The notes: a model not told the origin generated them from the letters alone. A stretch of DNA of 64,000 bases from Vulcanimicrobiales bacterium (GCA_038231455.1 JBBRLI010000008.1:78931-142930), one strand, 5' to 3'; shown: positions 9,817-56,425, counted from the stretch's first letter. Numbers and translations are program-made.

Positions 9817-9832
9817 GGTGACCACTATCACC
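9817..9832 (-). promoter_or_regulatory. Crp/Fnr-type palindrome upstream of the bchNBGP operon
   Basis: GGTGAtagtggTCACC (minus strand), 22 nt from a CACAAT -10-like hexamer at 9789-9794. Confidence 0.8.
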
Positions 9833-9836
9833 CGCT

Positions 9837-10304
9837 TCAAACGCGCTGCTCGGCGCGACGGCCGCCGCGCAGGTAGCGGCCCAAAACGACCGCCGTTCCC
9901 TTGCCCGGACGGCTCCGTACGGTGAAGACATCCGTGCACGACTGCATGATCGGAAGTCCGCGACCGCGCTCCGAATCCGTCGGCGGCAAGGCCGGTCCTG
10001 CCGGAACATCCGGTGGCGCGAAGCCGATGCCGGTGTCGACAACGGTCGCCACCAGCTTATCGCCGTCCAAAAACCACGTCGCGACTTCGATCGCTTCTCG
10101 GCTCTGCGCGTGCTCGATGGCGTTTGCCAAAGCCTCGCCGACCGCGATCATGAATTCGCGCAGATCGGCCTCCGGCAGCTCATAGGTATTCGCAAAGCTC
10201 ATGAGGCGTTCACGGACGTATTTGCCGTAGCGCGCATCGGGCGGGACGCGAAGCCGAAGGATAGCGCCCGGTCGCATCCGGGTCTCATGAGTGCTTCTTT
10301 TCAT
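9837..10304 (-). CDS. RsbW-like anti-sigma factor/HATPase_c_2 domain protein
   Basis: EALANAIEHA, DTGIGF and ERGRGLPIM GHKL boxes. Confidence 0.85.
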   Translation of the reverse strand: MKRSTHETRMRPGAILRLRVPPDARYGKYVRERLMSFANTYELPEADLREFMIAVGEALANAIEHAQSREAIEVATWFLDGDKLVATVVDTGIGFAPPDVPAGPALPPTDSERGRGLPIMQSCTDVFTVRSRPGKGTAVVLGRYLRGGRRAEQRV

Positions 10305-10366
10305 GGTGAATCCGAGTTGGTTTGCCCACGCGCGGCAGGAGGTAAACCCTTTCGCATCCGGACGTG

Positions 10367-10393
10367 AAAAAGGACCCGGCGCTTGCCGAGTCC
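10367..10393 (-). terminator. Intrinsic terminator downstream of the cupredoxin gene
   Basis: GGACTCGGC-AAGC-GCCGGGTCC followed by TTTTT on the minus strand. Confidence 0.75.
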
Positions 10394-10417
10394 CCGTTCA
10401 ATTGGGTCGGGTGGGGC

Positions 10418-10768
10418 CTACTTGACGATGAACTTCATCGCCATGTTGGCGTGGCCCGCGCCGCACACGAGCGTGCAATGCGCGACGAAGGTTCCGGCCT
10501 TCTTCGGGGTCACTTTGACGGCCGTGTCGGGCGTCGCGATGACAACGTTATTGAGGCCGATTTCCGGCACGTTGAGGCCGTGGGCGCCGGCGAGCGACTT
10601 GAAGTGGATCGTGGTGGTCTGGCCCTTTTTGAGCATGACGGTGTCGGGCGCAAACTTGAAGTTGGTCGAGCTGGCCGTGACGGTGATGTCTTTGGCCGAG
10701 GCCGGTGCGACGGTTGCGGCGCCAACGAGGGCGGCGGCGACGGCGAGTCCGGTGATGAGGTTACGCAA
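10418..10768 (-). CDS. Secreted stand-alone CuA-type cupredoxin (about 116 aa)
   Basis: GGAGG RBS with TTG start; Sec signal ending ASA; upstream His plus CTLVCGAGHANM (C-x3-C-x3-H-x2-M). Confidence 0.8.
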   Translation of the reverse strand: MRNLITGLAVAAALVGAATVAPASAKDITVTASSTNFKFAPDTVMLKKGQTTTIHFKSLAGAHGLNVPEIGLNNVVIATPDTAVKVTPKKAGTFVAHCTLVCGAGHANMAMKFIVK

Positions 10769-10946
10769 GGAAGTTCCTCCGAAAAAATGTTGATGAGGGC
10801 GTGGCCCCGATGTCGTTTGACGCCGGAGGGCCAATCTATGAACGCATATCAAACGCAAATAGGTCCGCGATAAAGGTCGCACGCGGCGGACTTTCGTTCC
10901 TGCTCTTGCGAGGCACGCGCCGGGCGGAGGCGAATGGGGCCCGCCT

Positions 10947-54172: not shown

Positions 54173-54934
54173 CTAGCGCCGGACCGCTTCGAACACGAAG
54201 CTGTCGTAGAAGAAGAACTTCACGCGCTCGGTCCGGGTGATCTTGTAGCCCGCGCGATACATGATGCGCTCGACTTCGTCGTAGCTGAACATGAAGAGAT
54301 TGGTCATGCGATTCTTCGCATGGAATTTCGTGCCCATCTTCATCCAGAAATCGTTGAACGGCGTGCGCAGTGCGAACGACGCGACGAGTTTATGCGAGGA
54401 GAGATTAGCAAGGCGCGAGAGCATGTCTTGCACTTCGGCGAGCGGGTAGTGGAAGAGCACATCGAGGCAGCAGACGAGATCGTAGGTTTTCTCGGTGCCT
54501 TCAACGGCGCTGATATCGCCGACTTGGAAGTGCGGTGCGATGCCTTTGGTGCGGCCGCTATTGATGTACTTCGCGTAGTGGATCATCGGCGCTGAGACAT
54601 CGAATGCATCGACGTCGTAGCCGTGATTCGCGAGTTCCAGTGAGAGCGTTCCCGTACCGCAACCGGCGTCGAGCACGGTGTGCGAAGAATCGTCTTTCAC
54701 CCATTTGACCACTTGATCGAGCGCGCGCTGGTGACCGTCGCGGATGACTTTCCAGATCGGCGGAATGTCGCCGGCTCCGTAAATGGCCGTCCACCGCGAG
54801 AAGCCCGAGGTCTCGAAATATTTACGGACTTTTTGTCCGACGGGCGAGGCGTTGTCGCCACCGAAAAGCGGTTTGCGCGCCGGCGCTGCGACGCCAGGTT
54901 GGGCGATCGTCCGGGTCAGCTGCTCTTGTTGCAT
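54173..54934 (-). CDS. bchM: Mg-protoporphyrin IX methyltransferase
   Basis: VRKYFETSGFSRW..IYG, DAGCGTG and CLDVLFHYP motifs. Confidence 0.92.
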   Translation of the reverse strand: MQQEQLTRTIAQPGVAAPARKPLFGGDNASPVGQKVRKYFETSGFSRWTAIYGAGDIPPIWKVIRDGHQRALDQVVKWVKDDSSHTVLDAGCGTGTLSLELANHGYDVDAFDVSAPMIHYAKYINSGRTKGIAPHFQVGDISAVEGTEKTYDLVCCLDVLFHYPLAEVQDMLSRLANLSSHKLVASFALRTPFNDFWMKMGTKFHAKNRMTNLFMFSYDEVERIMYRAGYKITRTERVKFFFYDSFVFEAVRR

Positions 54935-55009
54935 CGGGGCTACCTCTGAAGGGGGACGAGATAAAGCCCGTCCGGTGTCCTTACTGTAGCCGCTACCGGG
55001 TCAATGTAC

Positions 55010-55025
55010 GGTGACGACTATCACC
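55010..55025 (-). promoter_or_regulatory. Crp/Fnr-type palindrome upstream of bchM-acsF
   Basis: GGTGAtagtcgTCACC, 21 nt from TACAGT (54983-54988); overlaps the stop codon of the upstream small gene. Confidence 0.8.
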
Positions 55026-55209
55026 CACGCCGGACGATCGGCGCTACGGGACCCATCCGACGCTGAATTTGGCGGTACGCGACCACGACGCCGAAGGCGA
55101 TCGCCGCCAGAATCACGGCCACGAAAACGATTTTAAGAACGAAAGCAAGGACGATCAGCGCCACGATGGCGCCGGCAGCGAGCACGGCGAAGCGGATAAA
55201 GAGCGACAT
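55021..55209 (-). CDS. Small 62-aa hydrophobic membrane protein
   Basis: GGAGG RBS with ATG; about 40 contiguous hydrophobic residues. Confidence 0.7.
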   Translation of the reverse strand: MSLFIRFAVLAAGAIVALIVLAFVLKIVFVAVILAAIAFGVVVAYRQIQRRMGPVAPIVRRG

Positions 55210-55257
55210 GACAACCTCCACCCACACGTACTGCGCGGGGTGGCCCGGAGTTTCGCG

Positions 55258-56340
55258 CTACGTTTCGGCGCCGCTCGTGGCAAGCTCGGCCAGCTTCGAG
55301 GCATCCAGAATGACGATCGTCGCGCCTTTGCGCGTTTCGATGAAGCCGCGGTCCTGCAGCTCGTGCAGTTTCCTTGTGACCGTCACGCGGTTCGAGCCGA
55401 TCATATCCGCCAGACGCTGGTGGGTGAGCGGGACGTCGATCGCACCGTCGGGTTTCCCAAACTGCTTGCCAAGTTCCAGGAGCGTTCGGTAGAGGCGCAA
55501 GTTGACGCTGTTGTTGAGCAGATCTTCGATGAGGACTTGCGACTCGGTCATCCGGCGCGCGAAATTCGTGATCACGTCGATTGCGGCCATCGGCTGCTGC
55601 GCGATCACGTCGGCAAGCTCGGTATCGCTCACCGCGACGAGCGACGAATCGGCCATCGCCTCCGCGCACAGGCACGAGAGGCTGCCCGATTCGGCGCGCC
55701 ACTGGAGAAAGACGTCGTTCGGTCCGAGGATCGAGAGCGTGATGCAACGGCCGTTGGGAAGTAAGTTGTAGAGCCGCAGCTTCCCCGTCTCGACAAAATA
55801 GAAGCGCATGCCCGAGTCGTAGAGAGGCGTGATTTCCTCACCGACTTGCAGGCTAATCGAGGTCGACCCGGCCTTGTTGCGCAGCAGTGCCGCGAGGCGC
55901 TCCTTGGCGACGATCTTTGCCGAGGGGTCGATATTTTTTTCACGGTCGGACTCGAGCTTGTAGCCCTCGGCGACGGCCATGACGATCATCGAGCGCAACT
56001 CGGCGATTTCGTTAATGATGTCCAGCGGCGGGATCATGCCGTCGTTGGCCTCGAGCAACGCTAGCTCGATCATGTTGGTGGCCTCGACGTTGCGGCGGAT
56101 CGCATCGGAGAGATCCATCCCCGAGCGCGCTTGGAAAACGCCGGCGTCCCGCGAGTAGCCCATGAGTTCTTCGAAGTCCGCGGTCTCGACGGCGCGAACG
56201 ATCGCATCCCAGTACTGGGTGTGCTTCGAAATCAGCTCCGGCCGTGGGGGGGTCGAGAACGTCGAAACGCTCTGATTTACCCACCGGTCGGTGTACATCT
56301 GCGTACTCTTACGAAGCATCGCAGCGAGGGTAGCGGACAC
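55258..56340 (-). CDS. Crp/Fnr-family regulator with extra N-terminal helical (RsbRD_N/globin-like) domain
   Basis: cNMP-like barrel (FYFVETGKLRL..LGPNDVF); HTH LTHQRLADMIGSNRVTVTR; about 130-aa N-terminal extension. Confidence 0.88.
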   Translation of the reverse strand: MSATLAAMLRKSTQMYTDRWVNQSVSTFSTPPRPELISKHTQYWDAIVRAVETADFEELMGYSRDAGVFQARSGMDLSDAIRRNVEATNMIELALLEANDGMIPPLDIINEIAELRSMIVMAVAEGYKLESDREKNIDPSAKIVAKERLAALLRNKAGSTSISLQVGEEITPLYDSGMRFYFVETGKLRLYNLLPNGRCITLSILGPNDVFLQWRAESGSLSCLCAEAMADSSLVAVSDTELADVIAQQPMAAIDVITNFARRMTESQVLIEDLLNNSVNLRLYRTLLELGKQFGKPDGAIDVPLTHQRLADMIGSNRVTVTRKLHELQDRGFIETRKGATIVILDASKLAELATSGAET

Positions 56341-56409
56341 AGGAGCACCCTTTCCGGGAATGTGATGGTCTTCCGCTTCATATAGTGAGCCGAACTGCCG
56401 ACCACTGAA

Positions 56410-56425
56410 AGCGACCCAAGTCACC
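56410..56425 (-). promoter_or_regulatory. Degenerate copy of the palindrome upstream of the Crp/Fnr gene
   Basis: GGTGActtgggTCGCT (8/10 match), 22 nt from CACTAT (56382-56387). Confidence 0.55.

Follow-up and report, generated by a model that had tools for sequence, protein, structure and literature searches.

The DNA analyzed here (the window) is a stretch of 64,000 nucleotides (nt) from contig C8 of the genome (G000) of a Vulcanimicrobiales bacterium, a phototrophic member of the Eremiobacterota (Vulcanimicrobiota). Phototrophy in the Eremiobacterota (WPS-2), a group of light-harvesting soil bacteria, was recognised only a few years ago; a single member has been cultured, and the photosynthesis genes do not form one cluster but lie scattered. 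In the window, four sets of bch pigment genes, named from NCBIfam profile matches, are each preceded by the same inverted repeat, which we call box 1 and define as the 18-mer GGGTGA-N6-TCACCG (search pattern GGGTGANNNNNNTCACCG). The boxes, the -10-like hexamers that follow them and the genes downstream were located as listed below (aa, amino acids).

9816-9833, minus strand: box 1, GGGTGATAGTGGTCACCG, upstream of bchN-B-G-P
9789-9794, minus strand: -10-like hexamer CACAAT of the bchN promoter, 21 nt after the 18-mer
8351-9754, minus strand: bchN (TIGR01279, 417.5 bits)
6810-8354, minus strand: bchB (TIGR01278, 498.2 bits)
5837-6817, minus strand: bchG (chlorophyll synthase, 335 bits)
4538-5833, minus strand: bchP (BchP-ChlP, 396.5 bits)
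26813-26830, minus strand: box 1, GGGTGACGTTTATCACCG, upstream of bchL
26786-26791, minus strand: -10-like hexamer TACGGT of the bchL promoter
25899-26735, minus strand: bchL (TIGR01281, 360.1 bits)
35683-35700, minus strand: box 1, GGGTGATAGCTATCACCG, upstream of bchH; the inner 16 bases are a perfect palindrome
35656-35661, minus strand: -10-like hexamer TAGCCT of the bchH promoter, 6 nt before the ATG (35649)
31681-35649, minus strand: bchH, 1322 aa (TIGR02025, E 1e-173, 579.9 bits, below the curated cut-off of 829)
55009-55026, minus strand: box 1, GGGTGATAGTCGTCACCG, upstream of bchM-acsF
54983-54988, minus strand: -10-like hexamer TACAGT of the bchM promoter
54173-54934, minus strand: bchM (TIGR02021, 186.2 bits)
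53017-54162, minus strand: acsF (TIGR02029, 274.4 bits)

All four matches in the window are exact and lie on the minus strand, which is the coding strand of the genes downstream. Shuffled versions of the window gave an expectation of 0.02 copies, and four copies were reached in none of 100 shuffles. The bare core GTGA-N6-TCAC, with 0.70 matches expected, was found at the same four places only. The occurrence of box 1 is far beyond chance. A preliminary description of this DNA had placed GGGTGA-N6-TCACCG at four bch promoters, had called the bchH copy a perfect palindrome and had estimated well under one chance match per 64 kb. Its 16-mers (the first at 9817-9832) correspond to our 18-mers without the outermost base at each end, and on each of these points we arrived at the same result, with the four copies found exactly, the genes as named and the palindrome (the bchH copy written as GGTGATAGCTATCACC) confirmed from the sequence. 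As to the genes, bchH has orthologues with 76-98% identity, and the conserved start of bchL is the ATG at 26735-26733, as judged from the sequence and from the starts of orthologue alignments, the open reading frame (ORF) call having begun at 26762.

In the whole assembly (3,710,853 bases, 61.3% G+C, 106 contigs) there are five 18-mers, all on contig C8. The fifth is located 7.3 kb ahead of the window and 36 nt upstream of bchF-bchC-bchX-bchY-bchZ, and the boxed operons are dispersed across ~62 kb among unrelated genes. Genome-wide, the shorter form GGTGA-N6-TCACC was found at seven sites, five of them being the bch boxes. The two further sites lie outside ORF calls or in a gene's last 25 nt with no bch gene nearby, and one of them (C1:368270), although located 59 nt before a gene, is not followed by a -10-like hexamer at the required spacing. 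Among the 32 GTGA-N6-TCAC sites listed for the genome, 10 were outside ORF calls, as defined by a codon-bias ORF caller and not by curated annotation, and half of these 10 are the bch boxes. Weaker candidates, with at most two mismatches, outside ORF calls (the last 25 nt of a gene being allowed) and with a -10 at the right distance, precede mnmG, an 86-aa ORF and other unrelated genes, and were treated as chance matches; a site at C4:21776 (CGTGATAGCTATCACC) failed the position filter and was taken to lie within a called ORF. Since the mismatched candidates with a suitable -10 precede unrelated genes, the strict box 1 regulon of this genome consists of the five bch operon starts, and the strict form is found at these starts only, not equally before unrelated genes.

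Conservation of box 1 and geometry of its promoters

For comparison with other genomes we used 27 loci around orthologues of Crp-G, a Crp/Fnr-family protein encoded in the window, plus loci around BchH, BchL, BchN, PufL and a second such protein, Crp-S. The former come from relatives labelled Vulcanimicrobiota, Candidatus Eremiobacteraeota, Ca. Velthaea, Ca. Lustribacter and Vulcanimicrobiaceae, and the latter were drawn from 41 relatives plus a sample of 301 genomes of the order. Counting copies with no more than one or two mismatches, all at outermost bases, box 1 was present before bchM in 22 of 22 loci, before bchF in 5 of 5 and before bchH in all five genomes, which belong to four genera; at bchH its core begins 48-49 nt before the ATG, and the upstream neighbourhood is unrelated among the five. 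Before bchL it was found in 27 of 28 loci (17 exact, seven with one mismatch and three with two), the 28th having GTGA-N6-TCGC at the usual distance from TAGCGT. It also preceded bchN in 22 of 28 loci, and because the six unboxed bchN genes sit directly (20-40 nt) behind a boxed bchL, the box tracks operon starts, not genes. Box 1 is thus conserved at orthologous promoters while its surroundings diverge: between genera only the 16-18 bases of the box and the -10 element are retained, and spacer and flanks differ.

In the pooled set from other genomes (147 loci, 746,605 bases, some of which overlap or may be the same genome fetched twice), all 74 exact matches to the 10-base core lie within 200 nt upstream of bchM, bchF, bchH, bchL or bchN, as do 27 of the 64 one-mismatch matches. 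At these target genes the mismatches are all at the outermost positions. Several of the 37 non-target one-mismatch matches are probably real sites too; the 37 include three upstream of bchC, where bchF was not recognised, and two before a geranylgeranyl pyrophosphate (GGPP) synthase gene (L052:2597-2612, 21 nt from CATAGT, and a matching copy at L053:3436-3451, which probably precedes the same gene). The orthologue of this synthase gene here (C2:149108-150148) lies within an operon and has no box 1. The expectation in the preliminary description that further photosynthesis genes would carry the motif was therefore borne out in part: it held for bchFCXYZ and, with one mismatch in two other genomes, for GGPP synthase, but not for puf, which carries a different box (see below).

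The site set consisted of 96 distinct sites taken as 71-mers, including the five of this genome, and yielded the consensus G-GGTGA-Y-n-G-C-Y-R-TCACC-G (Y, pyrimidine; R, purine; n, any base). At the five bch promoters box 1 is an inverted repeat of two 5-bp half-sites, GGTGA and TCACC, placed 6 bp apart. Positions 2-5 and 12-15 were invariant in the 96 sites. Among the positions that were free of selection, a G right after the promoter-proximal half-site was present in 86 and a G before the distal half-site in 63, whereas position 6 was Y in 90 and position 11 was R in 91.

Counted from the 16-mer, the start of the best -10-like hexamer is 21 nt away in 62 sites and 22 nt away in 33, so that 95 of the 96 distinct sites have one of these two spacings. 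The hexamer has the form TAnnnT at most promoters and sAnnAT (s, G or C) at bchN, where the promoters of relatives have GACAAT, CATGAT, CATCAT and similar hexamers at equal distance. In the window the four hexamers begin 20-21 nt past the 18-mer, equivalent to 21-22 nt past the 16-mer, and the distance from the box centre to the first base of the hexamer is 29.5-30.5 nt. Setting the hexamer at -12 to -7 places the centre at -41.5 or -42.5, and this would imply the arrangement of class II Crp/Fnr promoters. Both the 21-22 nt distance to CACAAT, TACGGT, TAGCCT and TACAGT and its fit with a class II site centred near -41.5 had been put forward in the preliminary description; the four hexamers were verified, and the wider site set is consistent with the fit. 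No TTGACA-like hexamer was seen 17 nt upstream of the -10 when the four window promoters were read by eye. Only 6 nt separate the bchH hexamer from the ATG in each of the five genomes, three other genera having TAGCGT-6 nt-ATG, and such a short distance predicts a leaderless bchH mRNA.

Two Crp-type regulators and the puf operon

The two regulator genes and a second box, which precedes the puf operon, were located at the following positions.

G000:C8:70881-71561, outside the window: crpS, 226 aa, Crp/Fnr-family regulator, adjoining the bchF box
55258-56340, minus strand: crpG, 360 aa, Crp/Fnr-family regulator with its start set by 21 orthologues, helix SNRVTVTRKL and a predicted globin-like N-terminal domain (residues 1-158)
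L001:5508-5521 (G000:C8:67507-67520), ~11.4 kb before the window: box 2, GTAGCAGTGGCTAC, a GTA-N8-TAC site with TAACCT 23 nt after it, in front of pufB-pufA-pufL-pufM-pufC-crpS

The crpS gene starts immediately behind pufC. Between its end and the bchF box, 71 nt on, lies a hairpin (-23.8 kcal/mol, z -4.2) followed by the U-tract UUUUCGUU; this hairpin was shown by folding, though a simple terminator scan did not report it. In 24 of 30 loci a copy of box 1 is found downstream of crpS at a distance of at most 400 nt. The protein contains only one cysteine and lacks an added sensor domain. With regard to the cyclic-nucleotide binding that marks cAMP receptor protein proper, close homologues of Crp-S carry a precomputed PF00027 match. 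Regulators of the oxygen-sensing Fe-S subgroup, FNR, are marked by clustered cysteines that hold a [4Fe-4S] centre and by the box TTGAT-N4-ATCAA; Crp-S, with one cysteine, lacks such a cluster, and the core of box 1 is GTGA, not TTGA. The helix of Crp-S, HQDLANMIGTARETVSR, is identical at all but one of the 30 loci, the exception carrying I in place of L, and its read-out segment TARETVSR does not vary among the 30. This segment holds the Arg-Glu...Arg triad of Escherichia coli CRP, in which Arg180, Glu181 and Arg185 set specificity and Val181 loses the preference for G at half-site position 7 (PMC2677863). Box 1 has G at position 7 (GTGA) and therefore fits Crp-S. Among the 12 Crp-type helix-turn-helix proteins of the genome, only Crp-S and a protein encoded on contig C13 have the Arg-Glu...Arg triad, and only Crp-G has Arg-Val.

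Both regulators go with phototrophy. In a survey of the 301 genomes of the order (cut-offs for Crp-G and Crp-S of E <= 1e-40 or 1e-50), BchL, PufL, BchN, Crp-G and Crp-S were each found in 29 genomes, the union being 30 phototrophs; the genomes with crpG were all phototrophs, and the remaining 271 genomes yielded neither regulator. Among the 30, only G018 (80% complete) lacks Crp-S and only G001 lacks Crp-G; judged by the G000 spacing, crpG would be expected there right at the start of contig C4 or beyond it. That Crp/Fnr regulators limited to phototrophs are encoded beside the boxes speaks for the Crp/Fnr reading of the motif, and the match between helix and half-site suggests that Crp-S is the probable binder of box 1.

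In the window, crpG lies upstream of the bchM box with a 68-codon ORF in between (55021-55227, minus strand). This ORF would encode a hydrophobic, probably two-helix membrane peptide and has its TGA stop inside the box; it had no tblastn match (E <= 1e-8) in 27 related loci and may not be a gene. The Crp-G helix SNRVTVTRKL is invariant in 21 of 21 orthologues, with RVTVTR kept in eight paralogues. Some relatives (G005, G082 and G091) have two pufL copies and extra Crp-G paralogues (35-43% identity) that keep RVTVTR. In an alignment, NtcA chains carry STRVTVTR where Crp-S has TARETVSR; Crp-G has SNRVTVTR. NtcA reads GTA-N8-TAC with Arg186, Val187, Thr190 and Arg191, Val187 (glutamate in CRP) being the discriminator, and V187E abolishes binding (PMC11850224).

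On PF00027, Crp-G scored 28.3 bits. Its residues 1-158 had no Pfam, PDB-sequence or usable protein Atlas match, and Pfam sees no globin there. A model of this domain, folded with 19 orthologues, is an all-helical bundle (predicted local distance difference test score, pLDDT, 88.5; predicted template-modelling score, pTM, 0.75). Its best structural match was 4uiq_A (Z 11.5, root-mean-square deviation 2.8 over 127 residues), followed by 5ohe_A (Z 11.4), 3pmc_B (Z 11.3) and 2bnl_A (Z 11.1), and Foldseek gave a best E of 0.04 at a template-modelling score of 0.60. The best 50 structural entries were nearly all globins, sensor globins or phycobiliproteins, with the proviso that Z values below ~13 in helical proteins may reflect a common arrangement. 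A globin-like fold is thus predicted for residues 1-158. By our own naming of the helices, the domain's only histidine (H40) is in helix 34-53, and helix 77-98 contains none; because the predicted F helix is without histidine, haem binding via a proximal histidine is doubtful. Tyr43 and Trp44 are invariant. The domain was found solely in proteins of ~350-400 aa with a Crp helix-turn-helix (92 clusters, the named ones all from Eremiobacterota). Of note, residues 220-256 in the beta-barrel effector domain (window 55573-55683) include a Cys-x-Cys in SLSCLCAE, a possible redox or metal site, with C225 invariant and C223 in at least 90% of the 21 orthologues.

Upstream of pufB, a search for a GTA box identified box 2, GTA(G/A)-N6-CTAC, in 29 of 30 puf loci, the 30th offering 360 nt of upstream sequence only. 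In 28 of the 29 boxed loci TAnnnT follows after 22-23 nt. Boxes 1 and 2 have the same geometry and differ at half-site positions 7-8. The genome background of GTA-N8-TAC is 224 sites in 3.71 Mb (~0.06 per kb), and GTAG-N6-CTAC occurs at nine genome sites, two of which are outside ORFs, namely that of puf and one at C10:19301, which precedes pyrimidine-synthesis genes and is probably a chance match. Judging from its NtcA-like helix, Crp-G is the likely binder of the puf-promoter box GTAG-N6-CTAC. The preliminary description had proposed one activator for the scattered pigment genes. This part would still apply to the bch operons, which share box 1, but since puf carries an NtcA-like box instead, there are probably two regulators. 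A related motif, GTAAGC-N4-yTAC, was seen at four sites (C12:302, C12:3263, C20:644 and C43:11622; loci L202-L204) with TAnnnT 22-23 nt after each. Three are upstream of thioredoxin/redoxin-like paralogues and C12:302 is before a 69-aa ORF without a family match, and a further site (C1:92338) precedes a glycoside-hydrolase-like gene; these may be another NtcA-type regulon or duplicated promoters.

The genes pufB-pufA-pufL-pufM-pufC are on the same contig C8. No puhA was found in the genome, in which there was a weak PRC-barrel match only; a missing puhA has been reported for the phylum by Ward et al. 2019 (PMC6664022). Because crpS directly follows pufC in 23 of 30 loci (22 of 29 in other genomes, plus this genome), the amount of Crp-S is probably set by transcription of pufBALMC-crpS. 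Upstream of crpG, neither box 1 nor box 2 (at most one mismatch in the 8-base core) was present within 360 nt in any of 21 loci, so there is no sign of autoregulation, and crpG would stand at the top of a cascade. In such a cascade a signal would act on Crp-G through its globin-like sensor, Crp-G would switch on the puf operon together with crpS, and the Crp-S made from this operon would activate the bch operons. We regard this full sequence of steps, from Crp-G via puf-crpS and Crp-S to bch, as tentative, at slightly under even odds. More tentative still is the wider proposal that a private two-step Crp cascade runs the whole photosystem of phototrophic Eremiobacterota independently of the purple PpsR/PrrA/FnrL circuits, with Crp-G reading a signal such as oxygen, redox state, a tetrapyrrole or, indirectly, light.

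Several neighbouring genes were recorded as well. An RsbW/SpoIIAB-like anti-sigma-factor kinase gene (window 9837-10277, minus strand) stops 4 nt short of the bchN box. The gene for a fused BchI/BchD-like magnesium chelatase (37062-39404, minus strand, 628 aa) has no upstream box and is followed by a small lysine/alanine-rich histone-H1-like gene; a separate bchI was not found in the genome. A cryptochrome/photolyase-related gene (PF04244 DPRP) and, after it, a PAS-GGDEF diguanylate cyclase gene (22405-25902, plus strand) are convergent with the 3' end of bchL and may represent light or redox signalling inside the scattered photosynthesis region. Just before the window, downstream of bchZ and between dprA and hemL, lies a photoactive-yellow-protein-like gene (TIGR02373, E 5e-22; L001:15895-16311, G000:C8:77894-78310). 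A similar match is present after bchD in locus L036, and such genes are a possible light input.

Candidate mechanism and rival explanations

Altogether, we consider box 1 to be best explained as the operator of a Crp/Fnr class II activator, with Crp-S as its most likely binder, and give this explanation a probability of roughly three in four. Taken by itself, a role for box 1 as an activator site of the Crp/Fnr type in the bch regulon is very probable, and the view of the preliminary description, in which the scattered pigment genes are co-ordinated through a class II site of this type, found support in every comparative test that could be made. Mechanistically, a Crp/Fnr-family dimer would sit on box 1 in place of a -35 element and recruit RNA polymerase, so that the bch promoters, having a -10 element only, would depend on the bound dimer. 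Because the same box heads all five bch operons, one protein could switch the whole pigment pathway (bchFCXYZ, bchNBGP, bchL, bchH and bchM-acsF) together.

A number of points weigh against this explanation. The invariance of GTGA and TCAC is partly built in, since the sites were gathered by core similarity, and the locus counts are not independent events, because the genomes are related and some loci are possibly duplicates. The placement at -41.5, and with it the transcription starts that we infer, derives solely from -10-like hexamers, and the promoter consensus of the phylum may differ. A site overlapping the -35 region could also serve repression. As to the binder, the C13 paralogue also has Arg-Glu...Arg (TTRETVNR), and gene neighbourhood cannot separate the two regulators: crpG lies directly upstream of the bchM box in most loci, which links Crp-G to box 1 too. 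Finally, crpS is not behind pufC in 7 of 30 loci, only one of these seven has a box-2-like promoter within 500 nt upstream, and the cascade is therefore not universal.

The neighbourhood argument is the main strength of the rival in which Crp-G binds box 1, alone or beside Crp-S, with Crp-S then having another role. The crpG gene is the immediate upstream neighbour of the box and bchM-acsF at 19 of the 27 loci as well as in the window, Crp-G is as strictly confined to phototrophs as Crp-S, and it has the sensor-like domain that a master regulator would need. Its RVTVTR helix, however, which is constant in 21 orthologues and eight paralogues, is that of NtcA, whose valine discriminates against CRP-type sites (PMC11850224). 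Moreover, no other Crp paralogue of the genome has an Arg-Val helix, and the NtcA-type box conserved at puf would otherwise lack a binder. We therefore find this rival unlikely. The shared triad is what recommends the C13 paralogue, which would read box 1 with the bch genes as part of a global cyclic AMP-type regulon. This protein was found in 26 of 41 relatives (24 of 39 without G009 and G036, which are flagged as unpublished) and is not tied to phototrophy, because most of these carriers are without bch genes. A global regulator should also have many sites, but just 10 GTGA-N6-TCAC sites lie outside ORF calls and five of them are bch boxes, and box 1 has G (GGTGA) in place of the T of the CRP consensus TGTGA (PMC1635313). 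Such a role for the C13 protein thus appears quite improbable.

In purple bacteria aerobic repression is the main logic, and box 1 overlaps the place of a -35 element; box 1 might accordingly be a repression operator at which a Crp-family or unrelated dimer blocks the -35 region in non-phototrophic conditions, in the manner of PpsR/CrtJ. The window promoters, however, have no -35-like hexamer for a repressor to mask, and the fixed distance to the -10 (95 of 96 sites) is required by activation from -41.5 and not by repression. In addition, no PpsR/CrtJ reached the family cut-off in this genome, which is 93.7% complete (best match to TIGR02040 31.4 bits against 275.4). The claim that box 1 is not the PpsR/CrtJ box (TGT-N12-ACA) proved right on this count as well as on the differing architecture of the box, and we hold a repression operator to be very improbable. 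As for chance matches or mobile-element remnants with no regulatory role, we found no supporting point; the shuffles never reached four copies, only box and -10 are conserved across genera, and the position relative to the genes is fixed, which makes this idea practically negligible.

Significance and comparison with known systems

Existing work on the phylum offers some points of contact. In the cultured relative Vulcanimicrobium alpinus, bchM is up 2.90-fold and pufL 1.86-fold in light (PMC9758169). The words "regulator" and "promoter" do not occur in that description or in the 2019 genomic study, and within the limited collection of literature searched we found no photosynthesis regulator described for Eremiobacterota. 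The V. alpinus orthologues of Crp-S and Crp-G are WPS_26220 and WPS_24930, and named homologues of the two proteins carry only hypothetical, generic Crp/Fnr or HTH crp-type labels. Crp/Fnr activation of some photosynthesis genes is already known in purple bacteria and is not a new principle. What our sequence analysis would add is one more (fifth) target, the likely binder and, for the reaction-centre operon, a second box and a second regulator, along with a possible cascade. Together these make a testable circuit in which two candidate proteins would act through two short operators on five plus one promoters. If the two-step cascade is true, pigment would be made only once reaction-centre protein is being made. 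The pair would also be a clean natural example of how a single helix residue (Glu or Val) and a single operator base (GTG or GTA) can keep two Crp paralogues separate, and the boxes could be used as markers for further photosynthesis-linked genes in the metagenome bins of the phylum.

The closest functional parallels are FnrL and CrpK of Rhodobacter (Cereibacter) sphaeroides, which are Crp/Fnr activators that bind ahead of photosynthesis genes, bchE (bchEJGP) and hemA among them; CrpK resembles Crp-S in being without the four N-terminal cysteines of FNR (PMC4263372). Their sites have an FNR-type TGA-N6-TCA core, they serve many anaerobic functions and they form one layer beside PrrA and PpsR (PMC4263372), whereas here, in another phylum and with no PpsR found, the core is GTGA-N6-TCAC and the strict regulon consists of five bch operons. 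With class II promoters of E. coli CRP, box 1 shares the GTGA-N6-TCAC half-site core and a centre near -41.5 (here derived from -10-like hexamers), and Crp-S shares the Arg-Glu...Arg triad. It differs in having G and not T at position 4 (GGTGA), in the conserved G after the promoter-proximal half-site (86 of 96 sites) and in a tiny dedicated regulon instead of a global one.

NtcA of cyanobacteria is the nearest model for Crp-G. The read-out helix RVTVTR is identical, with the Arg, Val, Thr and Arg read-out residues present, and box 2 with its GTA-N8-TAC, 22-23 nt and TAnnnT has the layout of the canonical NtcA-activated promoter, which is centred at ~-41.5 (PMC3898017). NtcA, however, is a single-domain protein of ~220 aa controlled by 2-oxoglutarate and PipX, whereas Crp-G has 360 aa with an N-terminal globin-like domain of ~158 residues, occurs in Eremiobacterota and would serve reaction-centre genes, not nitrogen assimilation. 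For the proposed cascade there is precedent in the FixLJ-FixK system, in which a sensing regulator sets the amount of a downstream Crp/Fnr protein. A Crp/Fnr cascade of FnrL and then Dnr regulators is described for Dinoroseobacter shibae (PMC5398030). In both, as proposed here, an upstream sensing regulator sets the level of a sensor-less Crp/Fnr protein; the difference is that here the link would be crpS at the end of the reaction-centre operon and the sensor a globin-like domain fused to Crp. The predicted fold of that domain best matches globin-coupled and non-haem sensor globins (BpeGReg, AfGcHK, HemAT, the RsbR N-domain and pXO2-61). From these Crp-G differs in its output, a Crp-type effector domain with a helix-turn-helix, and, if the model holds, this globin-Crp fusion would represent a new output class for sensor globins.

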